A stretch of 51,226 nt of DNA, from the NCBI GenBank assembly GCA_964626495.1, contig CAZVFT010000003.1:1995-53220 (forward strand). The letters run 5' to 3'. Positions 1 through 34,130 of the stretch are shown here, one piece after another (the first letter of the stretch is position 1; each line of letters opens with the position of its first letter). Under the pieces are notes generated by a model. The model did no database searches, was not told the origin of the DNA, and saw nothing but the letters and a program-made list of their open reading frames with translations. This stretch comes from an uncultured bacterium (GTDB lineage: Bacteria > Fidelibacterota > Marinisomatia > Marinisomatales > CAZVFT01). The position numbers and the translations under genes are program-made.

Positions 1-1775
1 ATGATGAAGGTTACAATGACAACTGTCTGGTGAACGTGGTATCCCTCGGGGTTGTTCGGGAGGATGAGATACTCCATTCTTACGCACCCCAAAATGCTGA
101 TGGCTACGATTTGATTCTGGTGGGAAAACCGACCGATAACAGCGGTTTTGGTGGCGCCAGCTTTGCATCACTGGAACTCAATGAAGAGGAAAAAGAGAGC
201 AAAAAAGCAGCCGTCCAGGAACCTAACGCCTTTCTAGAACGACATATCCTGAAAGCTACCTATGCTCTGTTCGACCTGCTAAAAGAGCGTGGTTATCTTG
301 ACAGGGTGGGATTCAAAGACCTGGGCGCTGGAGGAATAGCCTGCGCCAGCGTGGAATTAGCAGACGGTGGTGGCTACGGGGCAGATGTCTACCTCGACAA
401 GGTTCACATGGGGATGGAAAATCTCCATCCTTCCGTCATTCTTTGTTCGGAGACGCAGGAGCGATTCATGTGGGTATCACCTCCGGAATTAAGTAACATC
501 ATTCTCAATCATTATAATCAAACATACGACCTCCCCAATATTTCCAAGGGAGCTGAAGCACGAAAAATTGGTAAGATTCGTGGTGATAAACAATATACGG
601 TTTATTTTAATAGTGAGATTATCGTAGATGCTCGAGCCAGCGATGTAACAAAAGGCCTTCTTTACAATCGGGAATACAGATTGCCCAAGAAAAAACTAAC
701 AGAACCAGATATCCCAGAGCCTGATAATTATAACGAAACATTTCTCAAAATTTTGTCTCACGAGAATATCGCCTCAAGACACCCGGTTTTTGAGACGTAT
801 GATAAGCAAGTTCAGGGGAGGACAATCATTGAAGCTGGTGATGCCGACGCTGGAGTGATGCAGCCCTTCAACAATGACCACTACCCTGAAGAAATTCGTT
901 CCGTTGGAATTGCTCTCTCTGTGGACCACAATCCGCGTTACGGGAAGATTGATCCATTCTGGTGTGGGATCAACTCGGTGGTAGAAGCAATGCGCAATGT
1001 CGCTGCTGTTGGGGCAACCCCTCAGGCTGTCAGTGACTGTCTTTGCTTTGGAAATCCGGAAAAGCCGAACCAGATGGGACAGTTCGTGGAAAGTACTCGG
1101 GGAGTGTCAGAAGCGTGTAAGGAGATTCATCTCAAAGAGCACCCTAAAGAACCAGTCCCAATCATTGCCGGGAATGTTTCCTTCTACAACGAATCGAAGA
1201 ATGGTGCCATTCCGCCAAGCCCTATCATCGCCTGCCTGGGCAGGACGGAGGATGCAGCTCAAGCAGTAACTTCACACTTCAAGCGGATAGATTCCGTATT
1301 ACTGATTTTGGGTAAACGGAAGGACGAATGCGGTGGAAGCATTTATTATGCTCTCCACGATGAGCTTGGAGCCAATGTACCTCAACCTGATCTCGCAGAA
1401 ACTGAAGCCCAAATCTTCGCAGTTACAAATGTTATCTCTGCCGGTCTTGTCCTAGCCTGCCACGACATCTCCGAAGGGGGTATTGCCACTGCCCTGGCAG
1501 AGATGAGCTTCCGAAACGACATCGGGTGTGAGGTTAATATTCCAGGAGAATTGCGAACAGACAAATTACTTTTTTCTGAAACTGGAGGGTTTGTGCTGGA
1601 AGTGGCGCCAGGTAACTTGAAGACTCTCCGAGAAGTCTTTTTATCACGCGGTATTGAAGTAACAAAAATCGGCAAGACAACTGACAAGCCTATTCTGAGA
1701 ATCAACAACTTGGTGGACCACCCTGTCGCTGCAGCGAAGGAGGTATGGGAGAATGGGTTGCGAGAGAAGTTATGA
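1..1775 (+). CDS. purL: Phosphoribosylformylglycinamidine synthase subunit PurL (5'-partial)
   Basis: Frame is open from position 3 (DEGYNDNCLVNV). Motifs DLGAGG, SETQER, YDKQVQ, DCLCFGNPE, GNVSFYNE and HDISEGG. Confidence 0.96.
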   Translation, partial: DEGYNDNCLVNVVSLGVVREDEILHSYAPQNADGYDLILVGKPTDNSGFGGASFASLELNEEEKESKKAAVQEPNAFLERHILKATYALFDLLKERGYLDRVGFKDLGAGGIACASVELADGGGYGADVYLDKVHMGMENLHPSVILCSETQERFMWVSPPELSNIILNHYNQTYDLPNISKGAEARKIGKIRGDKQYTVYFNSEIIVDARASDVTKGLLYNREYRLPKKKLTEPDIPEPDNYNETFLKILSHENIASRHPVFETYDKQVQGRTIIEAGDADAGVMQPFNNDHYPEEIRSVGIALSVDHNPRYGKIDPFWCGINSVVEAMRNVAAVGATPQAVSDCLCFGNPEKPNQMGQFVESTRGVSEACKEIHLKEHPKEPVPIIAGNVSFYNESKNGAIPPSPIIACLGRTEDAAQAVTSHFKRIDSVLLILGKRKDECGGSIYYALHDELGANVPQPDLAETEAQIFAVTNVISAGLVLACHDISEGGIATALAEMSFRNDIGCEVNIPGELRTDKLLFSETGGFVLEVAPGNLKTLREVFLSRGIEVTKIGKTTDKPILRINNLVDHPVAAAKEVWENGLREKL

Positions 1776-1796
1776 CGGCTGCAGGTATTGAAAAAT

Positions 1797-1897
1797 GAAC
1801 ACAGGGCACCACCGAGAAGCACAGAGTAACACAGAGAAAATAATCAAAATTTCAACTGCTCTGTGGTTCTCTGAGATCCTCTGTGAACTCTGTGTCC
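1797..1897. repeat. CACAGAG-heptamer inverted-repeat element (gene-less), purL-purM spacer
   Basis: Four CACAGAG-like heptamers at 10-bp period (1800-1836), an AT-rich spacer, then four CTCTGTG-like heptamers (1859-1894). Could fold into a long hairpin. Confidence 0.9.
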
Positions 1898-1913
1898 CTA
1901 TGGTACTCACAAA

Positions 1914-2951
1914 ATGAGTAAAACAGATTACAAATCCGCCGGGGTGAACATTGATGCTGGCAATGAGGCAGTGGAACGCATCAAGTCTTCCGTCAAAAGC
2001 ACTTTTACATCTGCAGTGATGACAGACGTAGGAAGCTTCGGCGCCATGGTGGATCTGAAGGAGCTTCTAAAGGACTACGCTCACCCGGTGTTGGTCCAGA
2101 GCATTGATGGCGTGGGGACGAAAATGATTGTTGCCAGAATGATGAATAAATATGATACGATAGGTTTTGACCTTTTGGCTGCCACCTGCAACGATATCAT
2201 TGTGCACGGAGCAAAACCGATCACATTTCTTGATTACATCGCTGCCGATAAACTGGAGCCAGACATCATCGAGGCTATTGTTACGGGAATGACTGAAGCC
2301 TGCCATAAGGTCAACGTTCCGCTGGTAGGTGGGGAAACAGCTGAGATGCCGGATACGTATCTATCAAGCGAACATGATCTTGTGGGTGTCATCACTGGCG
2401 TGGTGGAGAAAGACAGTATTATAACTGGAGATTCAATTATTCCTGGGGATGTTGTGGTGGGCCTTCCCTCCAGTGGACTGCACACCAACGGTTACTCTCT
2501 TGCCAGAAAACTATTTTTTGATATTGGGAAATTCGACGTTTCTTCATCCATTCCCGATCTGGATAAGTCCATAGGTGAAACGCTTCTGGAACCACACATT
2601 AATTACACAAACTCTGTTTTAGCCCTGATTGACGCTGGCATTAAAATTCACGGTATCGCCCACATAACCGGCGGTGGGCTGGTTGAAAATATTCCACGGA
2701 TACTACCAGACGGATGCGCAGTTGAAACCCACAAGGGAAGCTGGCCAGTTCTACCTATATTTAAAGTGATGCAGTCCATTGACAATGTGGATGATGCTGA
2801 GATGGTCCGTACCTTTAATATGGGTATTGGTATGGTGTTAATTGTTGAACCAGAACAGATAGATGCAATAAAGGATGTACTACAAGATCTGATAGAAGTG
2901 TTTACGATTGGGTCGGTTGTTAAAGGAAGTAAAAACGTTGTATTTAAATGA
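1914..2951 (+). CDS. purM: Phosphoribosylformylglycinamidine cyclo-ligase (AIR synthetase)
   Basis: YKSAGVNIDAG, DGVGTK, GGETAEMP, SSGLHTNGYSL, HITGGG, RTFNMGIG. Confidence 0.97.
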   Translation: MSKTDYKSAGVNIDAGNEAVERIKSSVKSTFTSAVMTDVGSFGAMVDLKELLKDYAHPVLVQSIDGVGTKMIVARMMNKYDTIGFDLLAATCNDIIVHGAKPITFLDYIAADKLEPDIIEAIVTGMTEACHKVNVPLVGGETAEMPDTYLSSEHDLVGVITGVVEKDSIITGDSIIPGDVVVGLPSSGLHTNGYSLARKLFFDIGKFDVSSSIPDLDKSIGETLLEPHINYTNSVLALIDAGIKIHGIAHITGGGLVENIPRILPDGCAVETHKGSWPVLPIFKVMQSIDNVDDAEMVRTFNMGIGMVLIVEPEQIDAIKDVLQDLIEVFTIGSVVKGSKNVVFK

Positions 2952-2972
2952 GTGAGTTAGGGGATATAAAAT

Positions 2973-3044
2973 GAACACAGAGTACCACCGAGCAGCACAG
3001 AGTCACACAGAGATAATTTATAAAATTTTAGAAACTCTGTGTTC
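2973..3044. repeat. CACAGAG-heptamer element with truncated right arm, purM-purQ spacer
   Basis: GAACACAGAG tac CACCGAG cag CACAGAG tca CACAGAG, an AT spacer, then a single CTCTGTGTTC. Confidence 0.88.
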
Positions 3045-3074
3045 CAAAATTATTTTGGTGCGTTGTAAAATAAA

Positions 3075-4334
3075 ATGAAAATCGCCATTATCCAATTCCC
3101 TGGATCAAATACAGAGCGTGAAACTTTTCTCGCAGTTCAGCGTGCAGGGATGGAACCGGTGGAATTCCTCTGGAACAATGATCAAAATCAGCTGGAGGAG
3201 TACGATGGCTACATCATCGCTGGGGGTTTCTCCTACGAAGATCGCTCCCGAGCGGGGGTAATTGCTTCTCTCGACCCGATTGTTAATGAAATTAAAAAGC
3301 AGGCTCAAATCGGTAAGCCCGTGCTTGGCATCTGTAACGGGGCACAGATTCTGGTGGAGTCCGGGATGGTGCCAGGATTGGAAAACTACAGACTTGGAAT
3401 GGCTCTGACGAACAACAAGCGCGTCAGAAACGGTCACGTCCTGGGGACGGGATACTATAATGTGTGGACAAATCTGAAACTTGCTGTTCCATCAGAGAGA
3501 ACAGTATTTACACGCCATCTCAATGGAGGTGACATTATCACTATTCCTCTTGCCCATAGCGAAGGGCGTTTCGTTATTCCTGACGAGTTGTTAGATTATT
3601 TAATCAATAATAACCAGACTGTATTTCGCTACTGTGACGATGATGGGATTATCCATAATGAATTCCCCATCAATCCTAACGGTTCAGTGTACAACATTGC
3701 GGCTTTGTGCAATCCGGATGGCAACGTGATGGCAATTATGCCTCACCCGGAGAGGAAGACAAATGGAGATGCTATTTTCATGTCGATGAGGGACTACATT
3801 GAAAAAAACAATAAAATTCCTCGTAACGATCTTATAGATTACTTCCCCGGTGATTTAACCATCCCCAATTACTTTCCCTCTGAAAATGCATTTGAATTTC
3901 TTGTAGATTTAATCATTACCGATAACGAAGCTGTCACTGTGGAGAATGCTTTGCAACATCTCGGGATGCCCGTCAGAGTAACCCGGCAATCCCACTGGGA
4001 GATCGAAACAGACGCATTGAATCCAGATCAGACAAAATCTGCAATTATCAAGTCTTCTGAACTATTTAACTCTAACAAAGAACGACTCACCACTTATATT
4101 AAATTAAAAAATTCCGTATCTTTTCTGGTGCGCTCAAAGGATGATTTTACAGGACAACATAAACTTGAAGCTTTGAAACACTGGTTTGGAATTAGAAACA
4201 TTCAAACCGTTAAAAGCGGAGTGCTATGGACTATCACCTCAGAAAATGGGGATATAAATGATGCGGTCAAGCAGGTTCTTGAAACCCATATATTATTCAA
4301 CCGCTATTCTTACGACTGTTATAGATATGGTTAA
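3075..4334 (+). CDS. purQ: FGAM synthase glutaminase subunit PurQ with ~170-aa C-terminal extension (PurS-like)
   Basis: FPGSN, GGFSYED, GICNGAQIL, MPHPER. 419 aa versus ~230 for a typical PurQ. Confidence 0.93.
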   Translation: MKIAIIQFPGSNTERETFLAVQRAGMEPVEFLWNNDQNQLEEYDGYIIAGGFSYEDRSRAGVIASLDPIVNEIKKQAQIGKPVLGICNGAQILVESGMVPGLENYRLGMALTNNKRVRNGHVLGTGYYNVWTNLKLAVPSERTVFTRHLNGGDIITIPLAHSEGRFVIPDELLDYLINNNQTVFRYCDDDGIIHNEFPINPNGSVYNIAALCNPDGNVMAIMPHPERKTNGDAIFMSMRDYIEKNNKIPRNDLIDYFPGDLTIPNYFPSENAFEFLVDLIITDNEAVTVENALQHLGMPVRVTRQSHWEIETDALNPDQTKSAIIKSSELFNSNKERLTTYIKLKNSVSFLVRSKDDFTGQHKLEALKHWFGIRNIQTVKSGVLWTITSENGDINDAVKQVLETHILFNRYSYDCYRYG

Positions 4335-4403
4335 TGATGCATCTACTTGCTTATCTATGATTATTCTTAAAATGCGAAACTTTAACCTGAAAATTTAATC
4401 ACT

Positions 4404-5372
4404 ATGAACTCCTACAAAGAAAAAATTATCCGAGAATTAAACAACTGTTTGACGGTGACTAATCTTCCATATGGGAAAAAAGAAAGTGGTAAGGTTCGTG
4501 ATTCTTATGAGTTTGACGGACGGATGATTTTTATCACCACAGACCGACAAAGCGCTTTCGACCGTATCCTAACTTCCATTCCTTTTAAGGGGCAGGTACT
4601 GAATCAGACCAGCTCCTGGTGGTTTGAACAGACAAAGGAAATTATTCCCAATCATGTTATCTCTGTCCCGGATCCGAATGTGACCATTGGAATTAAATGC
4701 GATGTTTTCCCAATAGAGTTTGTTGTCCGTGGATACATCACAGGCACCACGGATACATCTCTCTGGACTCACTACAACAGAGGGGTTCGGAATTACTGCA
4801 GCAACAAATTACCTGAGGGGTTGCAAAAAAATCAAAAACTTGAAGTACCGCTCCTGACACCCACGACCAAGGATAAAAAGCACGACAGGCCTGTCAGTCC
4901 GGATGAGATTGTGAAAGATGGACTCATGTCCGAGGAAGATTTGGAAACGGTTAGCAATAAAGCGTTTGAACTGTTTACATTCGGACAAGAAACCGCCCAA
5001 AAACATGGTCTGATCCTGGTAGATACCAAGTACGAATTTGGTCGTGATGCTGACGGTAATGTCCTGCTTGTTGATGAAATCCACACACCGGACTCCAGCC
5101 GATACTGGCTTGCTGATAGTTACAAGAAACGGTTTGAGAAGGGTGAAGAGCCTGAGTACATTGATAAGGAATTTCTGCGTTTGTGGTTTGCGGAACACTG
5201 TGATCCATACAATGATGAAATGCTTCCAGAAGCACCTGAAGAATTGGTGATAGAGCTTTCCAGCCGATATATCTTTTTATATGAAACTATTACGGGGCAA
5301 AAGTTGCCATTTCCCGATTCAACAATATCTATTCAAGAACGTATTAATGAAAATTTGAAGGATTATTTATGA
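4404..5372 (+). CDS. purC: SAICAR synthetase
   Basis: GKVRD, TDRQSAFD, IPFKGQVLN, TPTTK, DTKYEFG, DEIHTPDSSRYW, DKEFLR. Confidence 0.97.
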   Translation: MNSYKEKIIRELNNCLTVTNLPYGKKESGKVRDSYEFDGRMIFITTDRQSAFDRILTSIPFKGQVLNQTSSWWFEQTKEIIPNHVISVPDPNVTIGIKCDVFPIEFVVRGYITGTTDTSLWTHYNRGVRNYCSNKLPEGLQKNQKLEVPLLTPTTKDKKHDRPVSPDEIVKDGLMSEEDLETVSNKAFELFTFGQETAQKHGLILVDTKYEFGRDADGNVLLVDEIHTPDSSRYWLADSYKKRFEKGEEPEYIDKEFLRLWFAEHCDPYNDEMLPEAPEELVIELSSRYIFLYETITGQKLPFPDSTISIQERINENLKDYL

Positions 5373-5776
5373 AAGCCGTAATTATAATGGGTTCCACGTC
5401 TGACGAAGCCCACGCTAAAAAAATCATAACCAAGTTGGAGGAACTGGGTATCGCCTTTGATCAGCATGTAGCGTCTGCTCATAAGAAACCTCGAAAGGTA
5501 CTGGAGATTATTGAATCATATAAGAACGAAACGGGTATTGTCTTCATCACAATCGCTGGACGCTCTAATGCTCTTTCCGGTTTCGTGGCTGCAAATTCTG
5601 AATTCCCAACCCTTGCCTGTCCCCCGTTCAAAGACAAAACAGATATGATGATTAACATCCACTCCACACTTCAGATGCCCAGCAACACCCCAGTGATGAC
5701 TGTGCTTGATCCTGGGAATTGCGCACTTGCAGTTAAAAGGATCCTCAGTTTAGCCACAGAGGGCACAGAGAAATAA
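5369..5776 (+). CDS. purE: AIR carboxylase PurE, class II-like
   Basis: IMGSTSD, SAHK, AGRSNALSG, ACPP, STLQMPS. Confidence 0.93.
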   Translation: MKAVIIMGSTSDEAHAKKIITKLEELGIAFDQHVASAHKKPRKVLEIIESYKNETGIVFITIAGRSNALSGFVAANSEFPTLACPPFKDKTDMMINIHSTLQMPSNTPVMTVLDPGNCALAVKRILSLATEGTEK

Positions 5777-6158
5777 ATTGTGGCAGATAAACTAACAGAA
5801 CTAATTATCGCGGCTGCCATCGAAGTACACCGGATTTTGGACCCCGGATTATTAGAATCCATTTACGAAGAAGCCCTATGCCCCGAACTGGCTCTACGTG
5901 GGCTTTCTGTCAAAAGGCAAGTAGAAATTGACGTAACATATAAGGGAAAGGTTATTAAAGGACAACGGATTGATATTCTTGTCGAAGGTCAGGTTGTCGT
6001 TGAATTAAAATCTGTGAGTTCTCTCCCCGAGGTGGCCCTAGCTCAGACCCTTTCATATTTGAAGGCAACAGACCTGAAACGATCTCTTCTCATCAACTTT
6101 GGAGAAAAGCGTCTGGTTGACGGCATAAAGAGGATTTCTCTGTGACCTCTGTGGCTAA
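5750..6158 (+). mobile_element. Putative 409-bp GxxExxY element with 25-bp terminal inverted repeats
   Basis: TTAGCCACAGAGGGCACAGAGAAAT (5750-5774) versus ATTTCTCTGTGACCTCTGTGGCTAA (6134-6158): 24/25 inverted match enclosing a single ORF. Confidence 0.75.
5780..6145 (+). CDS. GxxExxY protein (PD-(D/E)XK nuclease-like)
   Basis: EVHRIL-PGLLESIYEEAL, RIDILV, VELKSV, AQTLSYLK, LLINF. Confidence 0.93.
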   Translation: MADKLTELIIAAAIEVHRILDPGLLESIYEEALCPELALRGLSVKRQVEIDVTYKGKVIKGQRIDILVEGQVVVELKSVSSLPEVALAQTLSYLKATDLKRSLLINFGEKRLVDGIKRISL

Positions 6159-7491
6159 TTCTATTTCTCCTTTGGATGGACGATACGCTGAAAGCGTTAA
6201 AACACTTTCCGATTATTTTTCAGAAGCAACACTCATACGCTACCGGTTGAAAGTTGAAATCGAGTATCTCATTGCTTTAGGAAATGAAAAAGGGGTCAAA
6301 GAACGGTCACCATTTTCAAAAACCGAAAAGGCGCAGTTACGAAAAATATATGAGAACTTTGATTCAACCACTGCTCAAAAAGTTAAAGAAATCGAAGCCA
6401 CTACCAACCACGATGTTAAGGCTATTGAATATTTTCTCCAGACCAAAATTAAAAAATCTCTCCATCCGTGGATTCACTTCGCCCTTACCTCAGAGGATAT
6501 TAACAATCTCGCCTACGCCCTTATGTGGCGTGATGGTGTCAGACAGGCTTATATCCCCACCCTTCAAAAAGTGTGTGGCCATCTGCGTAGATTTGCCATC
6601 CGTTATAAAGACCTACCCCTTCTCGCTCTGACCCACGGTCAACCTGCTACTCCTACTTCACTGGGGAAAGAGTTCGCTGTTTTCGCCAGCCGCCTCCAGG
6701 GGCAGCTCCGGCAGTTGAAAGCCCACCAACTCCAGGGAAAACTCTCCGGTGCTACGGGAACGTGGGCTGCCCACACAACTGCCTATCCCAACGTCAACTG
6801 GGTTGCCTTCAGCAAACGGTTTGTGAAATCCTTGGGTTTAGAGCCCAACCTTATCACCACTCAAATCGAGCCGAACGACTCTCTTGCAGAAAACTACCAT
6901 ATCCTGATTCGCGTAAACACCATTCTGTTGGACCTCTGCCGAGACGTCTGGCTCTACATTAGTCGGGGTATTTTCGGACAGAAAACGAAGAGCGACGAAG
7001 TGGGCTCTTCCACCATGCCGCACAAAGTAAATCCTATCCATTTCGAGAACGCTGAGGGAAACCTTGGCATCGCTAACGCTTACCTGTCTCATCTGGCGCA
7101 AACACTCCCCGTCTCTCGGATGCAGCGAGACCTCTCCGGCAGCACCGTCATACGGAACCAAGGCGTACCGCTGGCTCACTCGCTGCTGGCGTGTAAAAAT
7201 ATACTGAAAGGACTCGACCGCCTCACCATAAACCGTGAGAGAATCCGCGAAGAACTGAACGATCACTTGGAGGTATTAGCAGAAGCTATTCAAACAATTC
7301 TCCGTAAATCGGGTGACCCACATCCATATGAACGGCTGAAAGACTTCACGCGTGGGAAGAAGATAACACAAGATGACATTAGGGCATTTGTTCAGACTCT
7401 CGATCTACCGGAGAAGGAAAGAAAAGCACTGCTAGCGCTGACACCGGAGAATTATATAGGATTGGCTGCAAAAATCGTGGAATTACTATGA
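6142..7491 (+). CDS. purB: Adenylosuccinate lyase
   Basis: ISPLDGRY, TNHDVKAIEY, TSEDINN, THGQPATP, GSSTMPHKVNPI, SRMQRDLS. Confidence 0.97.
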   Translation: MTSVANSISPLDGRYAESVKTLSDYFSEATLIRYRLKVEIEYLIALGNEKGVKERSPFSKTEKAQLRKIYENFDSTTAQKVKEIEATTNHDVKAIEYFLQTKIKKSLHPWIHFALTSEDINNLAYALMWRDGVRQAYIPTLQKVCGHLRRFAIRYKDLPLLALTHGQPATPTSLGKEFAVFASRLQGQLRQLKAHQLQGKLSGATGTWAAHTTAYPNVNWVAFSKRFVKSLGLEPNLITTQIEPNDSLAENYHILIRVNTILLDLCRDVWLYISRGIFGQKTKSDEVGSSTMPHKVNPIHFENAEGNLGIANAYLSHLAQTLPVSRMQRDLSGSTVIRNQGVPLAHSLLACKNILKGLDRLTINRERIREELNDHLEVLAEAIQTILRKSGDPHPYERLKDFTRGKKITQDDIRAFVQTLDLPEKERKALLALTPENYIGLAAKIVELL

Positions 7492-7632
7492 ACACAGAGA
7501 ACCACAGAGAAAGCCTTAGCCCTGGGCGTTCCGCGACTGCGAGCCCTCAGAGAACCACCGAGCAAAGAAAAAACATTCGGGTAAATAATTCTTCTCCGTG
7601 GCACTCTGTGACCCTCCGTGAGCTCTGTGTCC
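7490..7632. repeat. CACAGAG-heptamer inverted-repeat element with nested ~33-bp insertion, purB-purF spacer
   Basis: Left arm CACAGAG x2, GC-rich insert 7510-7545, then CTCAGAG and CACCGAG. Right arm CTCCGTG/CTCTGTG x4 ending TGTGTCC. Confidence 0.9.
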
Positions 7633-7645
7633 AAAGGAAATATTA

Positions 7646-9124
7646 ATGTGCGGTATTGTCGGTATATTTTCTCATAGACCCGTTGCTGGCGAGCTATACG
7701 ATAGCCTGATCCATCTTCAACATCGCGGGCAGGATGCCGCCGGTATTATGACTTATGACAGACGAATGCATAAAGAAAAAGGACTGGGGATGGTACAGGA
7801 TATTTTTACCGAAGATAACATGGGTCTTCTTAGCGGTAATATTGGAGTGGGTCATACCCGCTATCCCACCCACGGTGGATTTGGCCATGGTGAGATTCAG
7901 CCCTTCTGGACAGAAGTCCCCTACGGTATTGCTATGGCACACAATGGAAACCTGGTAAATTATCGGGAATTAGCACGCGAGATAACGAAAAAGGAAAAAC
8001 GATACCTGAATACCACCAGTGATACGGAAACCATTTTACATCTCTTTGCAGACGCACTCAGCAAAAACAGTGTAGCAGAATCAGATGAACAGTTTTTTGA
8101 ACAAATCTGTCAAGCTGTTCAACAGGTATTCCACCGCGCCAGTGGATCTTATTCAACGGTCAGCATGATTGTTGGGAAAGGTATGGTTGTGTTTCGTGAC
8201 CCGCACGGAATCCGACCGCTCTCGATGGGTAAGCGGAAAAATTTGGATGGAACTGATGATTATATCTTCGCTTCAGAGACCACAATGTTTTATGCTCTTG
8301 ATTATACATTAATTGGCAATGTATCCCCTGGAGAAGTAATTTATATCAGTAGTAACGGAAGAAAATTCAATTGTATTCTGCAGAAGAAACAATTTACTCC
8401 CTGCGTTTTTGAATATGTCTATTTTTCCCGACCTGATACTATGATGAACGATGTGAGCGTATACCGGGCTCGCCTGCGAATGGGGCAGAATCTCGCCAAC
8501 CGCTGGAAAAAGCGTTATCCGGGAATTTTACCGGATGTAGTGATTCCAGCACCTGCCACATCCAACACCGCTGCCTTATCCCTGGCTCATGAACTGGGTG
8601 TGCGTTATACGGAAGGATTGTATAAGAATCCCTTTATCGGCCGTACATTTATTATGCCCGGCCAGGAAAGACGAAAAAAATCTGTTAAGTACAAATTGGT
8701 GCCACAGGAAATTGAAATCCGCGACAAAAATGTGATGATTGTAGATGATAGTATTGTTCGAGGAAACACATGTAAAGAAATTGTAAAAATGGTGCGGGAT
8801 TTCGGAGCAAAGAATGTCTACTTCACGGTCTCCTGCCCGCCAGTAAAACTCCCATGCTTCTATGGGGTGGATATGCCTACGAAGTTAGAGCTTATCGCAA
8901 GCCAGATGAACGAGAAGGGAATCCAAGAATTCATAGGAGCAGACATTCTACTCTACCAAGAAATTGATGATCTGGTAGAAGCCGTCACCCGAAAGGGGGA
9001 ACACCATATTGATCGTCCCTGTATGGCATGTCTGGACGGATGGTACGTCACGGGAGATGTAGACGATGAGAAAATGCAGCTCATGGAAAATCAACGAAAT
9101 ATTGAGAGGTCCCAGTTAACATGA
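7646..9124 (+). CDS. purF: Amidophosphoribosyltransferase
   Basis: MCGIVG N-terminus, LQHRGQDAAG, GHTRYPT, HNGNL, CVFEYVYF, VDDSIVRG. Confidence 0.97.
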   Translation: MCGIVGIFSHRPVAGELYDSLIHLQHRGQDAAGIMTYDRRMHKEKGLGMVQDIFTEDNMGLLSGNIGVGHTRYPTHGGFGHGEIQPFWTEVPYGIAMAHNGNLVNYRELAREITKKEKRYLNTTSDTETILHLFADALSKNSVAESDEQFFEQICQAVQQVFHRASGSYSTVSMIVGKGMVVFRDPHGIRPLSMGKRKNLDGTDDYIFASETTMFYALDYTLIGNVSPGEVIYISSNGRKFNCILQKKQFTPCVFEYVYFSRPDTMMNDVSVYRARLRMGQNLANRWKKRYPGILPDVVIPAPATSNTAALSLAHELGVRYTEGLYKNPFIGRTFIMPGQERRKKSVKYKLVPQEIEIRDKNVMIVDDSIVRGNTCKEIVKMVRDFGAKNVYFTVSCPPVKLPCFYGVDMPTKLELIASQMNEKGIQEFIGADILLYQEIDDLVEAVTRKGEHHIDRPCMACLDGWYVTGDVDDEKMQLMENQRNIERSQLT

Positions 9125-10431
9125 TGATACTTCTTATTGGTTCCGGAGCGAGAGAACACGCTATCGTCCGTGCCCTGGCACGATCCCCGCAGAAGCCCAC
9201 GATTGTCTGTCTCGCCTCCAACAACAATCCCGGTATTAAAAAATTGTGCCGCCAATTCTCTTTAGGTAAGATCACTAATCCACAGGATGTTGTGGAATTT
9301 GCCAGAACGCACAGTGCCGATCTGGCAATTGTTGGTCCAGAAGCACCATTGGAAGTGGGTGTGGCAGACGCCTTGTTGGATGCCGGTATCTCCACAGTCG
9401 GTCCCAAGAAAGCCCTCGCTCAGATCGAGACCAGCAAAGGATTCACCCGGGATCTGCTAAAGAAATACAACATCCCCTCCTGTCCAAAGTACCGTGTGTT
9501 TAGCAGTATGGACGGAGTCTCTGAAATCTTGAGTGAGCTGGGAGAAGCATACGTAGTAAAGTTTGATGGTCTGATGGGTGGGAAAGGAGTAAAAGTTGCC
9601 GGTGATCATCTTCATTCACACGATGACGCTACTTCCTATTGTCAGGAAATTATTAAAAAAGGCGGAAAATTTGTTATTGAAGAAAAGCTGATTGGTCAGG
9701 AATTTTCTCTCATGAGCTTCTCTGATGGTGACCATCTGGCTCATATGCCCCCAGTTCAGGATCATAAAAGAGCGTATGTCGGCGATACCGGTCCTAATAC
9801 AGGAGGAATGGGAAGTTACTCGGACAGTAATCACCTCCTTCCTTTTCTTACAGAAAAAGATATTGTCCAAGCACAACAGTTTAATCAGGCAACCATTGAT
9901 GCCCTGAAAAAAGAATTTGGTGAAGGATACAAGGGAATCCTCTATGGTGGATTCATTGCAACTGCTGACGGTGTAAAACTTATCGAATATAATGCCAGAT
10001 TGGGTGATCCTGAGGGAATGAATGTGCTGGCCATATTGGAATCGGATTTTGTTAACATCTGCCAAGCAATTATGGATGGGACATTGACACAGGAACATGC
10101 CCGATTTTCTAATTTGGCTACTGTATGCAAGTACGCAGTTCCAGAAGGCTATCCCGACTCGCCGGTGAAAGGAGAACCCATTGATATTTCTGCAGTCACC
10201 AAGACCAATCAGCTCTACTACGCTTCTGTGGAGGCGAAGGATGAACAGCTTTATGAGGCAGGATCGCGGACTGTAGCATACGTCGGAATTGCAGAGACGC
10301 TGAGTGAAGCAGAGGCAAAGGCGGAATCGGAGATCTCAAAGGTCAGGGGATCATTATTTCATCGAACGGATATCGGGACAAATGAGCTGATTCAGAAGCG
10401 GATTGAACACATGCATGAACTCCGTCTTTAA
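9121..10431 (+). CDS. purD: Phosphoribosylamine-glycine ligase
   Basis: IGSGAREHA, VGPEAPL, GKGV, QDHKR, GPNTGGMG, EYNARLGDPE. Confidence 0.97.
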   Translation: MMILLIGSGAREHAIVRALARSPQKPTIVCLASNNNPGIKKLCRQFSLGKITNPQDVVEFARTHSADLAIVGPEAPLEVGVADALLDAGISTVGPKKALAQIETSKGFTRDLLKKYNIPSCPKYRVFSSMDGVSEILSELGEAYVVKFDGLMGGKGVKVAGDHLHSHDDATSYCQEIIKKGGKFVIEEKLIGQEFSLMSFSDGDHLAHMPPVQDHKRAYVGDTGPNTGGMGSYSDSNHLLPFLTEKDIVQAQQFNQATIDALKKEFGEGYKGILYGGFIATADGVKLIEYNARLGDPEGMNVLAILESDFVNICQAIMDGTLTQEHARFSNLATVCKYAVPEGYPDSPVKGEPIDISAVTKTNQLYYASVEAKDEQLYEAGSRTVAYVGIAETLSEAEAKAESEISKVRGSLFHRTDIGTNELIQKRIEHMHELRL

Positions 10432-10436
10432 TAAAA

Positions 10437-10455
10437 GCAACTAAATAACAGTTGC
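10437..10455. promoter_or_regulatory. Candidate hicAB operator (inverted repeat overlapping a -35-like TTGCAT)
   Basis: GCAACT-aaataac-AGTTGC about 30 bp upstream of hicA. Confidence 0.5.
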
Positions 10456-10485
10456 ATATTACTTCAGTAAGACTGTAAATTCCTT

Positions 10486-10761
10486 GTGAGTAAAATAGAA
10501 AAACTGATTCAAAGGTTCTTATCGAAACCAAAGGATTTCAAATATGCTGAAGCAAAAAAATTGTTACGCCATTACGGATACACAGAATTAACAAAAGGGA
10601 GAACGTCAGGATCGCGTGTTGCATTTGTAAACCAAAAACTGAAAAGATCTATCCTGCTACACAAACCGCACAAGGGACTTTTGAAACCCTATCAATTGAC
10701 TGAAATAAAGAATGAACTCATCAAAGCAGGAAAAATATTAGAGGAGAAAGAAGATGGTTAA
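10486..10761 (+). CDS. hicA: Type II toxin, HicA family
   Basis: Small basic protein with KGRTSGSRVAF and LHKPH; overlaps a hicB-like gene. Confidence 0.88.
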   Translation: MSKIEKLIQRFLSKPKDFKYAEAKKLLRHYGYTELTKGRTSGSRVAFVNQKLKRSILLHKPHKGLLKPYQLTEIKNELIKAGKILEEKEDG

Positions 10762-11110
10762 AGATACATTGTTTTACAAAGGATTTTACGGTTCAATTCA
10801 TTACACCGATGACGACAAGTGTCTGTACGGTCATATTATAGGTATCACAGATTCTGTCTCTTATGAAGGGACAACTATAAAAGAAATCACCAACGACTTT
10901 CATAGGGCAGTTGATGACTACATTGCTGTTTGTAAAACCATGGGTAAAACGCCCTTAAAATCTGCAAAGGGTTCTTTTAATGTTCGGATTGGCGAAGAAG
11001 CGCACTTGAAAGCATTGATTAAAGCGGATATGAAAAAAACATCCTTAAATCAAATTGTAAAAGAAGCTGTAGAAAAAGAGATTGAGGATATTGAGTTGGT
11101 GGTTGAATGA
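10754..11110 (+). CDS. hicB: Type II antitoxin, HicB family
   Basis: YKGFYGSI, FHRAVDDY, KGSFNVRI and an RHH-like C-terminus (SLNQIV). Confidence 0.9.
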   Translation: MVKDTLFYKGFYGSIHYTDDDKCLYGHIIGITDSVSYEGTTIKEITNDFHRAVDDYIAVCKTMGKTPLKSAKGSFNVRIGEEAHLKALIKADMKKTSLNQIVKEAVEKEIEDIELVVE

Positions 11111-11150
11111 AACTGTGGTTTTATGTAAAGGTTTTCGAGTGTTAATCAAG

Positions 11151-11233
11151 TGGAATAATATTGTAGTGAGCCAACCTGTAACTGGAATAATATTGTAATG
11201 CCCACACAAGACTGGATTGGAAATAATATTGCA
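11151..11233. repeat. Three spaced copies of TGGA(A)TAATATTG(T/C)A
   Basis: Identical 15-mers at 11151-11165 and 11183-11197; near copy at 11218-11233. Confidence 0.7.
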
Positions 11234-11254
11234 CTTATCATACAAGAAGGGAAA

Positions 11255-11273
11255 TCTCCGTGACCTCTGTGGC
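11255..11273. repeat. Solo right end of the GxxExxY-type TIR containing the purN start codon
   Basis: TCTCCGTGACCTCTGTGGC is 18/19 identical to 6137-6155. Confidence 0.8.
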
Positions 11274-11880
11274 AAAATCAATAAAACTCGGCATCCTCGG
11301 CTCCACCAAGGGTACCGACCTCCAGGGCATCATTGATGCCATCGCGGATGGCAGACTCGACGCATCGGTAGAAATCGTCATCAGCAACCGGATGAAATCC
11401 TACATCCTGGAGCGGGCCCGAAATCACAGCATTGATGCCGTCTTTATCAGTCACAAGGGGAAAGAACGGGAACAGTTTGATCGGGAGATGACGGAATTAC
11501 TGGAGGCTAAGGGAGTGAAACTCATTCTCCTCATCGGCTTCATGCGGATTCTTTCCCCGTGGTTTTGTCGTCGTTGGCATAACCGTGTCCTCAATGTCCA
11601 CCCTTCCCTCCTTCCCAAGTACGCTGGCGGGATGGATATGAATGTTCACGAAGAAGTTCTCAAAAACCATGACACAGAGACTGGCTGCACGATACACATC
11701 GTCACGGCTGAAGTGGATGCTGGTCCCATTGTTATTCAGAAAAAATGTGCAGTGAAACCTGATGACACACCAGAAACACTCAAAACAAAAGTGCAGTTAC
11801 TTGAAGGAAAGGCGTTTATTGAAGCAATCAAAATGTTCCAGAAAAATGAATTTTTGTGCGGTGACAAGACCTCTCAGTAG
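11260..11880 (+). CDS. purN: Phosphoribosylglycinamide formyltransferase
   Basis: GFMRIL, NVHPSLLP, TGCTIH, VDAGP. Confidence 0.96.
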   Translation: MTSVAKSIKLGILGSTKGTDLQGIIDAIADGRLDASVEIVISNRMKSYILERARNHSIDAVFISHKGKEREQFDREMTELLEAKGVKLILLIGFMRILSPWFCRRWHNRVLNVHPSLLPKYAGGMDMNVHEEVLKNHDTETGCTIHIVTAEVDAGPIVIQKKCAVKPDDTPETLKTKVQLLEGKAFIEAIKMFQKNEFLCGDKTSQ

Positions 11881-12113
11881 AATGGATTCAAGGGTATAAT
11901 ATGAAACCCATTATAATTCGTTAGTTCTGATAAGAGATAATGTTCACAGTTCTTGTTAATAACACAATCCTCCCTCCTGTTCCCGAAACTTCTGGACGTG
12001 AGGACATCCTTCTTTGAGGGAGTACAAAGATAAATCAGGAAATTATGACAATAAAATTGGTCGCTCTGAATCAAGTAAAGTAGTGGCAAAAGACTATATT
12101 TCGACTCCAGAAA

Positions 12114-12404
12114 AAGTCCCCTCTAGAGAGGGGATAAAGGGGTATGTTGTGAGACGAAAAATCATTCCCTACAATCCAAAATTGAAGAAGACAAAGAACG
12201 TCAGAAAAGATTAGAATCTTTCGATGTCCAGTTTCTTCGTTTTCACAAGATAGATGTAAAGCAAGATATAGGAGATGTCCTCACAGCAATCGAAAATTGG
12301 ATTGACAGATTTGAAAAGAGACAAATTGGGCATCATAGTAAAACATAAACAATTAACACACCCCGCCCGATTGTCATCGGGACACCCCTCTGAAGAGGGG
12401 ACTT
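12114..12404 (+). mobile_element. Inverted-repeat-bounded DUF559 element remnant
   Basis: AAGTCCCCTCTAGAGAGGGG (12114-12133) versus CCCCTCTGAAGAGGGGACTT (12385-12404), 18/20 inverted. Inner GGGGTATGTT / AACACACCCC, 9/10. Confidence 0.7.
12149..12348 (+). pseudogene. DUF559 / Vsr-like endonuclease with core deleted
   Basis: N-terminus MRRKIIPYNPKLK joined out of frame to C-terminus EDKERQKRLESFDVQFLRF..DVKQDIGDVLTAIENWI. The middle (catalytic) region is absent. Confidence 0.75.
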
Positions 12405-12430
12405 CTTTAAACAGGAGGCATTTAAACAGA

Positions 12431-13969
12431 ATGAACACAGAAAAGACATCGGTTAAAACAGCACTAATCTCCGTTTCTAACAAGGATGAAATCGTCGAAT
12501 GCGCCAAAGGCTTAACTGACCTCAGCGTGGAGATCCTCTCCACTGGTGGCACGGCTAAGGTACTGCGTAATGCCGGCATCCCTGTCTCTGATGTATCTGA
12601 TTACACCGGATTTCCAGAGATTATGGACGGACGAATAAAAACTATCAATCCGTTAGTAGAAGGGGGCATTCTGGGCTTGCGTGATGCGCATCAGGAAGAA
12701 GCGAAAGCAAACAAAATCCAATGGATCGACCTTGTGATCTGTAATCTCTACCCCTTTGCTGAGACAGTCCAGAAACAGGGGGTTATATTGGACAATGTCC
12801 TTGAGAATATCGACATCGGCGGGCCAACTATGATTCGCTCCGCCGCTAAGAATGTGGGGTGGGTTGGGGTAGTGGTAGATCCAGACGATTACGATTCCGT
12901 CCTGATCGATCTGCGAGAGGAATGTGGATTGACATTCGAAACAAGGAAGCGTCTCTCCGCCAAGGCATTCGGGCATACAGCCAAATACGACAGTCTCATT
13001 CACAACCACCTAAAGAGTGACCAGTTGTCAGACGATTTTTCTCTGACGTTCGAAAAGTATTACGACCTCCGCTATGGAGAGAATCCTCATCAGAAGGCTG
13101 CCGCTTACAAAGTACCAGTCTCCACTGGGCCGAACATTCTCAATGCCACAATCAATCAGGGCAAGAAACTATCCTACAATAATGTAATGGATGCTGATGG
13201 TGCGCTGGCTTGTTTGAGGGAATTTACTGAACCCGCTTGTGTGGTTGTTAAACACACCAATCCTTGCGGTGTTGCCATTGGAGACAACATCACTGACTGC
13301 TTTCACCGTGCCTTTAACGCTGACTCTCTTTCAGCCTTCGGCGGTATCGTTGCTCTGAACAGAACGTGCACAACGGAAATTGTTGAGGCATTGCGAAAAA
13401 TATTCATCGAGATCATCCTTGCACCTGACTTTGAAGGAGGTGCACTCGAACTCTTCTCCAAAAAGAAAAATCTCCGGGTACTTGGAATCGGGGACATTTC
13501 TGAACGACAACCCCAGATTGAACACCGCTACCTGGATGGCGGCTTGCTTGTTCAGGAAAGTAACGTTCATACGTTAACACGTGAACAACTGCGCACCGTG
13601 ACGAAAGTGCAACCTTCAAAACGTGAGATTGAGGATATGCTGTTTGGCTGGAAGGTGTTGAAGCATGTGAAATCCAACGGAATTTTAACCGCGAAGAATA
13701 ACACAACTTTAGGAATAGGTGCTGGACAGGTTAGCCGTGTGGATGCTGTGGAAATCGCCATCCGTAAATCGGGAGACAAACTGGAAGGCGCCATTGTCGC
13801 CTCTGATGCTTTCTTCCCTTTCCGAGACAGCATAGACCGGATTGAGGATACAGGAATAAAGGCCGTCATCCAGCCGGGAGGTTCAATACGGGATGAGGAG
13901 GTTATTGATGCCTGTAATGAACATGGGATTGCGATGGTGTTTACCGGTATGCGGTGTTTCAAACATTGA
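12431..13969 (+). CDS. purH: Bifunctional AICAR transformylase / IMP cyclohydrolase
   Basis: ALISVSNK, STGGT, NIDIGGPTM, LRYGENPHQ, KHTNPCG, SDAFFPF, RCFKH. Start moved to ATG 12431, downstream of AGGAGG. Confidence 0.96.
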   Translation: MNTEKTSVKTALISVSNKDEIVECAKGLTDLSVEILSTGGTAKVLRNAGIPVSDVSDYTGFPEIMDGRIKTINPLVEGGILGLRDAHQEEAKANKIQWIDLVICNLYPFAETVQKQGVILDNVLENIDIGGPTMIRSAAKNVGWVGVVVDPDDYDSVLIDLREECGLTFETRKRLSAKAFGHTAKYDSLIHNHLKSDQLSDDFSLTFEKYYDLRYGENPHQKAAAYKVPVSTGPNILNATINQGKKLSYNNVMDADGALACLREFTEPACVVVKHTNPCGVAIGDNITDCFHRAFNADSLSAFGGIVALNRTCTTEIVEALRKIFIEIILAPDFEGGALELFSKKKNLRVLGIGDISERQPQIEHRYLDGGLLVQESNVHTLTREQLRTVTKVQPSKREIEDMLFGWKVLKHVKSNGILTAKNNTTLGIGAGQVSRVDAVEIAIRKSGDKLEGAIVASDAFFPFRDSIDRIEDTGIKAVIQPGGSIRDEEVIDACNEHGIAMVFTGMRCFKH

Positions 13970-13984
13970 TTATGTTTATCTGAA

Positions 13985-32189: not shown

Positions 32190-34130
32190 TCACTTCAACA
32201 ACAATAACTTCTTCGTCTCTGTGAACTCTGTGGCTTCCAGTCGGTATAAGTAAACCCCAGCACCCACAGGGTTACCAAAATTGTCAGTACCATCCCAAAC
32301 CACCTCATGATAACCACTCACCAGTTCACCAGGCTCGCTGTAGGCACGCCGAGGCTTCACCAGTTCTTTTACCTCCCTGCCCATAATATCGTAGATAACA
32401 ATGGCTACATAGGATTGTTCAGGCAGGTTGTATCGGATTGTGGTTACTGGATTGAAGGGGTTGGGATAGTTTTGATAGAGAGCGAATTGGTGAGGGGTGA
32501 GGGGTAATTCGTGAGTAAATCCCGCTGCTCCGTATTCATATGCACCCATATCGGGAGCAAAACCGACATATTCATCCGGGCTGAAATCAACAACCGTATC
32601 TCCCATCCAGACAAAGAAATCAGTACCAGTATCTATGCAGGGGGAACCTTCTTGAAGATGAAAGTCTGTGCTATCAACGAACTGCGGATCGGCATCGATA
32701 TTGCCTGTACCCGCCCAGCCTCCTTCCACATCGCTATAGACTACTGTGATATCACTTGAACCATAGGAGCTATCAACCACAATTTCTTCATTTTCATTTC
32801 CCCATACGATGGAGTTGACCACAATGGGGTGAGCACCACCGTCGGTTCGTATTCCACGAAGATTTGCCACAATGGTATTGTTCACTATCTGTGCCTCGGA
32901 GTCGTACATACAGACAATCCCTTCTCCCTCATTTCCTGCAATCACATTTCGAAAGATCCGTGGAGAATTATCACCCCAGATACAAATACCACCTCCATCC
33001 CCAAAATCCATGACATTCCACTCGATGGTATTGCCTTCAATTAGCGGTTCACTACCCACACCCACAAATATTCCAGCTCCCTCGGCAACTCCATATCCAC
33101 TCATCGTCTCGTTTGAACGAATGATATTATCAAGAACTAACACATCTGAACTGTCCCGGATACAGATACCAGCTCCGGCATAGGCGCCATAGTTTTCACT
33201 GATGGTATTGCCAAGAATTTGAGCATCCGAATAACTGCAAAAAATGCCGGCACCATCAACATACCAATCACAGTAATTTTGAATGATTATGTTATTCTCA
33301 ATAATGGGTGAGGAATGGATGCAGCGGATACCTCCACCTCCTACCAGGAGTGTGTCACCATAAATAGCAAATCCCCTCTTAATTGTAAATCCAGTTAAAA
33401 CAGAATTTTCATCTTCTCCTGAAATGAAGGATACAACACTCCCACTGCTATCCCCATCAATAACAGTTTGTGAGATATAAGATGTATCACTGGTAGTAAG
33501 ATACAATGACCCCACCACAATATTCTTCCCATGGTAGTTGATATTTTCTACGTAGGTGCCTTCGTGGACAAGAATGGTGTCACCCTCACTTGACACATTG
33601 ATCCCATGCTGGATGGTGGCAAATGGATTTTCCGCAGAGCCGTCGCCGGTGGTATCATTGCCAGTGGTAGAGACATGCCAGACGGGACCAGAATATCCCG
33701 CCGGATAGGTAGTCACCACATAATTAACTGTATCAGAATAAACAGTACTATCAACATCCAATATTACCAGCTGAACCGTACCCGTCCCCTCATTTGTATT
33801 CGCATTTATGTAAAGTGTGAAATGCCGGCATGAATCCGGTTCCACTGGACTGCTGCCAAAGTCATAATTCGTAGCTATACTGTCAATGATAGGCGGATAA
33901 CACAAACCATCCAAACACATTCTCGATAACCAGTTTTCAGGTAAATCATCCACTGTTCTAACAATGGCAACAATAATCGTATCAAGTGAAACGTTCGTAA
34001 TCGTTGCATCGAACACCACAAGACTGTCTAACTCAATATATGCCTCTGTATCACCTGTTTCAAAAGTGAAACTCTGGGCTGTTATTATTCTTATAAAAAT
34101 TGTGGTAATAATAAGACCTTTTATTTTCAT
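32190..34130 (-). CDS. Secreted right-handed beta-helix (DUF1565-like) protein with FlgD/T9SS-type C-terminal domain
   Basis: WHVSTTGND..GS.ENPFATIQ, parallel beta-helix N-ladder repeats, DMGAYEY, QNYPNPFNP. ATG 34130 follows AGGAGG. Confidence 0.85.
   Translation of the reverse strand: MKIKGLIITTIFIRIITAQSFTFETGDTEAYIELDSLVVFDATITNVSLDTIIVAIVRTVDDLPENWLSRMCLDGLCYPPIIDSIATNYDFGSSPVEPDSCRHFTLYINANTNEGTGTVQLVILDVDSTVYSDTVNYVVTTYPAGYSGPVWHVSTTGNDTTGDGSAENPFATIQHGINVSSEGDTILVHEGTYVENINYHGKNIVVGSLYLTTSDTSYISQTVIDGDSSGSVVSFISGEDENSVLTGFTIKRGFAIYGDTLLVGGGGIRCIHSSPIIENNIIIQNYCDWYVDGAGIFCSYSDAQILGNTISENYGAYAGAGICIRDSSDVLVLDNIIRSNETMSGYGVAEGAGIFVGVGSEPLIEGNTIEWNVMDFGDGGGICIWGDNSPRIFRNVIAGNEGEGIVCMYDSEAQIVNNTIVANLRGIRTDGGAHPIVVNSIVWGNENEEIVVDSSYGSSDITVVYSDVEGGWAGTGNIDADPQFVDSTDFHLQEGSPCIDTGTDFFVWMGDTVVDFSPDEYVGFAPDMGAYEYGAAGFTHELPLTPHQFALYQNYPNPFNPVTTIRYNLPEQSYVAIVIYDIMGREVKELVKPRRAYSEPGELVSGYHEVVWDGTDNFGNPVGAGVYLYRLEATEFTETKKLLLLK

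Follow-up and report, generated by a model that had tools for sequence, protein, structure and literature searches.

Three hairpin-only elements of a purine-synthesis operon as probable members of the GxxExxY cassette family, crossed by relay reading frames

The locus considered here raises the question of what three short hairpin elements are, lying at gene junctions of a purine-synthesis (pur) operon, and whether they belong to purine synthesis at all. The window, that is the whole stretch of 51,226 nucleotides analysed, comes from contig CAZVFT010000003.1 of an uncultured bacterium of the Marinisomatales (GCA_964626495.1), whose draft genome has a size of 2.28 Mb, 129 contigs and 40% G+C; bases 1-14000 of the window are the operon, on the + strand. 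The elements, designated E1 to E3, are real, non-random and correctly tied to the unit of the GxxExxY gene (PF13366), a full copy of which lies at purE-purB. Comparison of sequences leads us to read them, with a probability of roughly 0.6, as hairpin-only members of the GxxExxY cassette family located at coupled junctions and read through by relay frames, their heptamers being likely sites of the predicted nuclease. The phased-heptamer GxxExxY cassette family is a grouping set up here and not taken from a paper.

1795..1899, + strand: E1, hairpin-only element between purL and purM (arms 1800-1836 and 1859-1894, separated by the loop 1837-1858; TCC follows)
2971..3046, + strand: E2, hairpin-only element between purM and purQ (four left heptamers, 2976-3012; one right heptamer, 3035-3041)
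7488..7634, + strand: E3, hairpin-only element at purB-purF (interrupted left arm, loop, right arm 7594-7629, then TCC)
5750..6158, + strand: full cassette at purE-purB (arms 5750-5774 and 6134-6158 around the GxxExxY gene)
5780-6145, + strand: GxxExxY gene, 121 codons (PF13366, E=1.4e-37; TIGR04256, E=9.6e-39)

The left arrays of all three elements have a period of 10 (Tandem Repeats Finder), with heptamers at 1800 (CACAGGG), 1810, 1820 and 1830 in E1, at 2976, 2986, 2996 and 3006 in E2, and at 7493 and 7503 in E3, where an insert precedes the last two units, at 7546 (CTCAGAG) and 7556. A search with 47 bases of this insert (7510-7556) found no second copy anywhere in the genome. After an AT-rich loop come the inverted heptamers of the right arm, four in E1 (1859, 1869 as CTCTGAG, 1879 and 1888), a single one in E2 (3035) and four in E3 (7594, 7604, 7614 and 7623), which gives arrays of 4+4, 4+1 and 4+4 units; the right arms end in CTCTGTGTCC (E1 and E3) or CTCTGTGTTC (E2). 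The elements, 76-147 bases long, are bounded by the inverted termini GAACACAGAG ... CTCTGTGT(C/T)C. Pairing of the arms was found by an inverted-repeat tool in E1 and E3, and in the fold of E2 the lone right heptamer pairs with the outermost left heptamer. RNA folding energies for E1, E2 and E3 were -33.4, -14.4 and -44.3 kcal/mol (z-scores -2.9, -3.0 and -2.7).

This layout had been described in a first-pass annotation of the sequence, which reported elements at 1797, 2973 and 7490 with four heptamers at a 10-bp period, an insert in the 7490 copy, and one to four inverted heptamers after an AT-rich spacer. All of this was borne out, except that its coordinates are 2 bases high, since ATGAACACAG matches at 1795, 2971 and 7488. 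The window has four matches to this motif, where shuffled sequences predict 0.13, the fourth (12431) being an unrelated one within purH. CACMGAG occurs 31 times in the window, compared with 7.9 +/- 2.7 times in shuffled sequences, and none of 100 shuffles reached 31.

The full cassette at purE-purB has arms of 25 bases each, 96% complementary, with two CACAGAG units per arm at a 9-base period; E1 to E3 have the heptamer, the arm layout and the terminal repeats in common with this cassette and with 52/54 close metagenomic GxxExxY relatives. Its arms are part of the neighbouring genes. The last seven codons of purE are left-arm sequence, the GTG start of purB sits in the right arm, and the stop of the GxxExxY gene overlaps that GTG. 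The GTG start of purN likewise lies inside a solo right arm, one of two solo arrays listed below:

11256..11271, + strand: solo right-arm array CTCCGTGacCTCTGTG, containing the GTG start of purN
32217..32232, - strand: solo two-heptamer array, encoding the C-terminal end of a 680-codon minus-strand frame (32190-34232)

The tie between heptamer and GxxExxY gene was examined in metagenomic GxxExxY loci, of which 80 were kept and 75 had enough flank on both sides. At least two CACNGAG units were present in an arm in 52/54 of the relatives at least 58% identical to the window protein (units on both sides in 45/54), and in 0/21 of the relatives below 58% identity, which have other units instead (CACAGAT, CACGAAA, CGCGAAT). 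The commonest cassette ends in this set were TAGCCACAGAG ... CTCTGTGGCTA. The heptamer type follows the clade of the nuclease, which is among the evidence for placing E1 to E3 in the GxxExxY family. A count of phased CACMGAG pairs over 41 genomes of the order gave 105 in the 26 genomes bearing PF13366 (at least one pair in 20 of them) against 3 in the 15 genomes without it, a distribution which, the genomes being mutually related, is to be taken as a pattern and not as a test statistic; a reversed control pattern gave 2 matches in the 41 genomes.

Within the present genome, nine PF13366 genes and seven PF05635 genes (23S intervening-sequence protein) were found, and most of those with readable flanks lie between inverted arrays of a short unit of their own, for example CGCAAAG, CACTAAG, CACGAAT or CGCGAAT. 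The seven PF05635 genes have arms of other units and periods (for example C14:8700-9000, C76:11200-11700 and C61:7400-7560), with a 14-base unit repeated at least 4 times beside the gene on C14. When 7-mers recurring at 7-14 bases (mostly 9-10) were ranked, CACAGAG came first with 16 tandem pairs, followed by CACGAAT (11), CGCAAAG (9) and CGCTAAT (8); as a plain word it is not enriched (rank 4336 of 8192). Two heptamers no more than 12 bases apart occur at 16 places, 6 on the contig of the window and 10 on nine other contigs (C28 twice), and 2 of these 10 are single forward/reverse pairs that may be due to chance. Solo arms are common. A genome-wide search for a tandem 6-mer with an inverted tandem proved too strict and its 9 hits were not used. 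An element of about 200 bases with a left two-unit CACAGAG array and a right CACGAAT-type array looks like a hybrid of two families; its three copies (C30:12621-12830, C32:1582-1789 and C39:7180-7381) are 82-95% alike.

These distributions bear on the idea that the elements are operators of a purine-specific regulator, which four arrays in a single pur operon might suggest. Heptamer pairs on nine other contigs, close metagenomic cassettes beside many unrelated genes, and the many pur junctions of relatives that have no element all contradict it; the candidate was rejected as hardly credible, and E1 to E3 are not purine-specific. The genome search that the first-pass annotation had proposed returned copies on further contigs; beyond this genome the motif is also found in other phyla, and the junctions that hold it are of many kinds. 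The finding it had named as pointing to a purine regulator, namely a motif confined to this operon and kept in relatives lacking GxxExxY, did not appear, genomes without the gene having 3 pairs in all.

A host nucleoid or global regulator acting independently of GxxExxY is the alternative suggested by published repeats. In Geobacter metallireducens, 21 paired sites of three repeats in tandem, TCTCCGTS[Y] being the consensus, have been described, on opposite strands, at variable distance and in some cases in amino-acid biosynthesis operons, and were read by the authors as sites of an unidentified global regulator, with IHF and HU as candidates (Aklujkar et al. 2009, PMC2700814). Their consensus contains the right-arm unit CTCCGTG, and the likeness extends, in the passages compared, to tandem units of 7-8 bases in two opposite-strand arrays at variable distance within biosynthetic operons, so that the repeats as such are already in print. 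As features of the present elements which set them apart from that description in the same passages, one can name the link to the GxxExxY nuclease, the hairpin-only derivatives and the translation. Such a host regulator, with IHF or HU as candidates here too, is considered very improbable: the heptamer type switches with the GxxExxY clade, arrays are almost confined to GxxExxY-bearing genomes, and heptamers differ among the nine GxxExxY paralogues of this one genome. A literature search on heptamer repeats, GxxExxY and PF13366 found no paper linking such repeats to GxxExxY.

The protein search with the GxxExxY product gave 3262 relatives at E <=0.001 among 3284 candidates. The best 120 of these relatives are 72-100% identical to the window protein, and their named sources include Marinimicrobia, Pirellulales, Hydrogenedentes and Rhodopirellula. 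Proteins 72-81% identical are named from different phyla, an identity far above that of housekeeping proteins of different phyla, which points to horizontal spread. All 35 relatives in the alignment have G23, E26, Y29, D65, E75 and K77. The AlphaFold model built on this 35-sequence alignment (mean pLDDT, predicted local distance difference test, of 95) has a predicted Cas4/RecB-like PD-(D/E)XK core, and the invariant residues, whose roles are presumed to be those usual in the superfamily, are consistent with an active site of this kind. Foldseek against the PDB returned weak matches, the best being Cas4 (4ic1, E=2.4e-3, template modelling score 0.53) and others being the nuclease domains of AddAB/AdnAB and lambda exonuclease; because the best E value is only 2.4e-3, the fold indicates no specific mechanism. 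A sequence search of solved structures with E up to 1 gave no match. We know of no activity of a GxxExxY protein.

Selection on the arms was examined on an alignment of eight gapless left arms of the 10-base-period type (4 from this genome, 4 from relatives). Pairwise difference was 11% in heptamer columns (86/784), 47% in spacer columns (118/252) and 64% over the first 10 loop bases (178/280); with cross-genome pairs only, heptamers differed by 10.7% and spacers by 55.6%. Within the heptamer no variation was seen at positions 1, 3 and 7, and 6% of comparisons differ at position 5, 17-18% at positions 2 and 6, and 36% at position 4. The variants in heptamers and spacers are uncompensated in the opposite arm. 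This supports selection on the heptamer motif and not on base pairing. The first-pass annotation had noticed that heptamers are conserved while the bases in between are free, which these figures confirm, and had proposed selection on phased protein-binding sites; the constraint on the motif rather than on pairing stands, and the binding itself is putative.

The same figures weigh on the possibility that the hairpins are inert relics that lost their gene by internal deletion, with arms that are young or homogenised by recombination and frames that are a by-product of stop-free heptamers. Decay should strike heptamers and spacers alike, contrary to the differences observed, and variants are position-specific, the second unit being CACCGAG in E1, E2 and three copies of G004, a genome from another family of the order. 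In favour of such relics, G001 has at purL-purM a relic of some 200 bases in which pieces of the N and C termini of GxxExxY survive, a 34-codon frame lies between conserved arms at purE-purB of L062, solo arms are common, and stop-free heptamers raise the odds of an open frame. Loss into inert relics was given a minor share of the probability, also because all three window elements retain a frame landing on the next start codon, as follows:

1795..1917, + strand: relay frame across E1, 40 codons, from the element's ATG to a TGA overlapping the purM ATG (ATGA)
2971..3078, + strand: relay frame across E2, 35 codons, from the element's ATG to a TGA overlapping the purQ ATG (ATGA)
7488..7646, + strand: relay frame across E3, 52 codons, its ATG overlapping the purB stop (ATGA) and its TAA overlapping the purF ATG (TAATG)

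The coding content of E1 to E3 is limited to such frames of 35-52 codons, which have no family match. The label "gene-less" of the first-pass annotation is therefore right as to the nuclease gene, which none of the three contains, and incomplete in that each is crossed by a frame ending on the next start. In each element one frame of three is stop-free, the other two carrying two to five stops across the spacer, and the E2 frame has a Shine-Dalgarno-like run, AGGGGA, 8 bases ahead of its ATG. No open frame was found in four spacers of this operon that lack such an element, and pur junctions without elements show the native overlap, ATGA or TAATG. Comparable frames were obtained in 1429, 184 and 2525 of 20000 dinucleotide-shuffled spacers for E1, E2 and E3, respectively (7.1%, 0.9% and 12.6%). 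Deduplicated pur spacers of 80-260 bases from relatives and the window were tabulated, a relay frame being counted when it covered at least 80% of the spacer. Such a frame stopping on the next start was present in 7/11 heptamer-bearing spacers; 4/15 of the other spacers had a frame of this coverage, of which 3 stop on the next start, and one of the four is a decayed element and another a real 80-codon gene. The hairpin preceding purF in G004 has a homologous frame, whose ends resemble those of E3 and which also terminates at TAATG. Two further copies in this genome begin with ATGGACACAGAG, one of them traversed by a frame of 76 codons, the other broken after about 20 codons, so the ATG was considered as part of this genome's subtype. 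Most likely, judging from the position of these frames, they restore a translational coupling that an insertion would break; relay frames across hairpin-only elements are new here.

In two RNA libraries of a single study, contigs span E1 (1500-1963), E2 (2690-3141), the cassette (5267-6326) and E3 (6457-8019); stretches that they leave uncovered carry no meaning.

E1 to E3 would thus be hairpin-only members of a promoter-less cassette family bounded by inverted phased-heptamer arrays, whose full-length members carry the small, predicted Cas4/RecB-like nuclease gene. The family is located where, among co-directional and translationally coupled genes, the stop of one gene meets the start of the next; its arms, stop-free within heptamers, can be absorbed into neighbouring reading frames, with the left terminal repeat often giving the stop of the upstream gene and the right one often a GTG start. 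Hairpin copies of the pur operon would be co-transcribed with the pur genes, and ribosomes would cross each copy along its open frame, from the ATG at the left end to the next pur start codon. Heptamers, with C1, C3 and G7 invariant, G5 nearly so and position 4 free, would be kept by selection on the motif, most likely as recognition sites of the cognate GxxExxY nuclease, of which the hairpins would then be non-autonomous partner sites. On the most likely reading, the three elements are hairpin copies, themselves non-autonomous, of a nuclease cassette that dwells in operons, and they are tolerated via relayed translation.

Several points weigh against this interpretation. Common descent alone would lead one to expect that heptamer type matches protein clade. 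Heptamers are stop-free in every frame, so the shuffle null, which destroys them, is too strict, and under a null based on frame register alone the chance for the three window elements is about 1 in 27. Outside the window the relay statistics are modest, the spacers compared (7/11 vs 4/15) coming from related genomes; no relay frame was found at the heptamer-bearing junctions purM-purQ of G004, purE-purB of L054 and purC-purE of L135, and the frame at purF-purD of L072 covers just 24% of the spacer. Among ATG-type copies of this genome, the frame of the copy on C69 has only about 20 codons and the copy on C19 is uncoupled from the next gene. Finally, assembled RNA contigs cannot show a single transcript, RNA ends, strand, expression level or translation, and DNA carry-over into them is possible.

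Co-transcription suggested by these contigs would also suit RNA elements selected by the host and folding in the pur mRNA, such as RNase III or other processing sites, or stability barriers setting the ratios of pur products, after the manner of 23S rRNA intervening sequences and Correia elements. The elements fold better than shuffled sequences (z-scores from -2.7 to -3.0), the seven PF05635 four-helix-bundle genes of this genome are also cassettes with their own inverted arms, and Correia elements are reported, in the part of the literature compared, to be bound by RNase III and cleaved or protected (PMC2649163). Folding of both strands of seven elements gave the opposite of what such a role predicts, the antisense strand being more stable in 7/7, by 3.7 to 17.6 kcal/mol. 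Antisense folds contain more G-U pairs than mRNA-strand folds, which means that the mRNA strand has mismatches of the A-C type. Were an mRNA hairpin under selection, such mismatches would be purged, so a stabiliser is disfavoured. Variants uncompensated across the arms argue in the same direction, as do the RNA contigs running through the elements, with which partial cleavage is compatible. An Rfam search at permissive thresholds over bases 1-14000 gave zero matches, rRNA included, and no terminator-like site was found on the + strand at E1 to E3. Host-selected RNA elements are on balance improbable and a selected role as mRNA stabiliser is unlikely, which weakens the stability or processing hairpin offered as an alternative in the first-pass annotation. 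An intrinsic terminator or attenuator was rejected on the absence of + strand terminator-like sites and the passage of RNA-library contigs through the elements.

The insertion niche of the GxxExxY cassettes was surveyed on 32 cassettes that had two arms and flanks fit for analysis, an upstream frame being counted if it was on the same strand, had at least 70 codons and stopped no more than 60 bases before the first heptamer. Such a frame was present in 29/32 cassettes, and in 10 of these 29 its stop, the TAG of the terminal repeat, ended exactly 2 bases before the first heptamer; in 24, a same-strand downstream frame opened at or near the right arm as well. In relatives, neighbouring pur genes mostly overlap (ATGA, TAATG) or stand a few bases apart, and the longer junctions often hold members of the heptamer family, so that a given junction may have a full cassette, a decayed cassette, a hairpin or nothing. 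The comparison of orthologous spacers advised in the first-pass annotation accordingly has a mixed outcome, with heptamer elements recurring at the junctions of relatives and many junctions having none.

In L047, a same-genus relative (about 87% DNA identity), GxxExxY is reduced to N- and C-terminal fragments within a 2+2 cassette at purL-purM, the cassette at purM-purQ encloses another small frame, the orthologous full cassette lies at purE-purB, and no element is present at purB-purF (TGATG). Since the purM-purQ arms enclose a frame that is not GxxExxY, heptamer arms may carry other cargo. This frame (L047, 1280-1710) appears hydrophobic by eye. In G004, whose purM is 73% identical, four-heptamer hairpins lie at purL-purM and purM-purQ, purB-purF reads purB, hairpin, GxxExxY, hairpin, purF, and on the right the flanks are similar to the ones of E1 and E3. 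Full cassettes occur at purL-purM in L142, L030 and L085 and after purB in L072. An origin of E1 in situ from the same-genus purL-purM relic was rejected: the relic has GCCACAGAG ends and 2+2 units at a 9-base period, as against GAACACAG ends and 4+4 units at a 10-base period in E1, which is of another subtype and thus not simply that relic after further deletion. Copies common to this genome and G004 are either ancient orthologues or repeated gains at a preferred site, and whichever applies, turnover at fixed pur junctions is high. Two other observations were made at relatives' junctions. A frame of about 200 codons at purM-purQ of L036 (G040) looks Y1/RAYT-type by eye (YHIYNRG..., HFHLLV), and in L055, of the Patescibacteria group, at least the purB-purF spacer of the pur operon holds hairpins of a CACCTAAT-like unit, six spacers of 96-204 bases having no relay frame.

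It is possible, and put forward tentatively, that the cassettes form an undescribed class of operon-specialised selfish elements, combining exact insertion of a promoter-less nuclease gene at stop/start junctions, repeats that supply stops and starts, relay frames, and homing or transposition between genomes, also across phyla, driven by GxxExxY as a sequence-specific nuclease for CxCxGxG-type heptamer arrays. If so, a TAG given to the upstream gene and a GTG given to the downstream gene would keep host translation uninterrupted, and the relay frames of hairpin-only derivatives would be kept to the same end.

Known systems resemble the elements in part. Like MITEs, the miniature transposable elements with inverted repeats, of which the Rickettsia palindromic elements are bacterial examples read in frame (review PMC10969869), they are small, have terminal inverted repeats and several copies, lack a transposase, are inserted in transcribed regions and have open frames that fuse with host translation or continue it, as far as the part of the review compared goes. 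They differ in that their arms are phased heptamer arrays and not a simple terminal repeat, that their gene-bearing partner has a predicted PD-(D/E)XK nuclease and not a known transposase, and that the frame is a separate intergenic relay, whereas the Rickettsia elements, in the same part of that source, are in-frame insertions within genes. The five ATG-type copies of this genome are alike in the arms only, BLAST giving one partial match to E2 (43 bases, 86%). As candidate target-site duplications that would take in the start codon, direct repeats around the two ATGs measure 7, 10 and 3 bases; 6/66 unrelated pairs of gene starts share at least 7.

Repetitive extragenic palindromes (REPs) have a GTAG-type head. 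With REP or REPIN elements and their RAYT genes, the present elements have in common dispersed palindromes whose sequence type is matched to one single-copy gene flanked by them; unlike these, the associated gene is PD-(D/E)XK and not HUH/Y1, the arms are heptamer arrays, and no GTAG-type head is present. The two Y1 genes of the genome (PF01797) are flanked by GC-rich palindromes, with no CACNGAG unit, and membership in the REPIN/RAYT system was rejected on this ground. Of the MITE- or REPIN-like derivatives of the GxxExxY unit supposed in the first-pass annotation, the hairpin-only derivatives hold, while no RAYT gene is flanked by CACNGAG. A second repeat system is formed by the GC-rich palindromes of CCTGCCCGCC... 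type beside the Y1 genes (C89:165-503 and C43:3708-4007). Similar GC-rich palindromes are nested in heptamer hairpins of the pur junctions of G004 (L019), and GC-rich palindromic inserts are present in the copies C19:7527-7695 and C69.

The 23S rRNA intervening sequences with an open reading frame (S23p / PF05635; Coxiella, PMC4990558), in the passages compared, likewise have a small promoter-less frame within inverted repeats in a highly transcribed unit. Here the sites lie between protein genes and not in rRNA helices, the cargo is of a different family, and excision by RNase III is disfavoured by the strand asymmetry of the folds; membership was rejected, as the elements lie between pur genes and bases 1-14000 have no rRNA/Rfam match. 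Ssn GIY-YIG single-strand nucleases, which recognise NTS repeats that vary with the homologue (Chenal et al. 2025, PMC11893778), offer the parallel of a small nuclease family paired with a dispersed repeat whose sequence shifts with the homologue. The nuclease fold differs, and NTS, in the passages of that paper compared, are not phased heptamer arrays enclosing the nuclease gene.

PDDEXK_3/PF13366 is given in the literature, as far as compared, as a family of unknown function. This very large GxxExxY family is now tied to a DNA motif, gene-less partners and an insertion niche, which makes its function open to experiment. Relay frames also illustrate the tolerance of a coupled operon to being invaded repeatedly. 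In annotation, one readily mis-calls short frames within such repeats, and starts or stops that fall in their arms.

The remaining features of the operon, all on the + strand, are the following:

ends at 1775: purL
1914-2951: purM
3075-4334: purQ-like gene
4404-5372: purC
5369-5776: purE
6142-7491: purB
7646-9124: purF
9121-10431: purD
10486-11110: HicB-family gene (PF05534) and a short frame preceding it, inserted at purD-purN
11260-11880: purN
12275-13969: purH

The purQ-like gene has 419 codons, its amidotransferase domain covering residues 2-230 only, and the C-terminal 190 residues had no Pfam match at the threshold used. In a same-genus relative, the purD-purN spacer is similar in length to the HicB-bearing spacer of the window.

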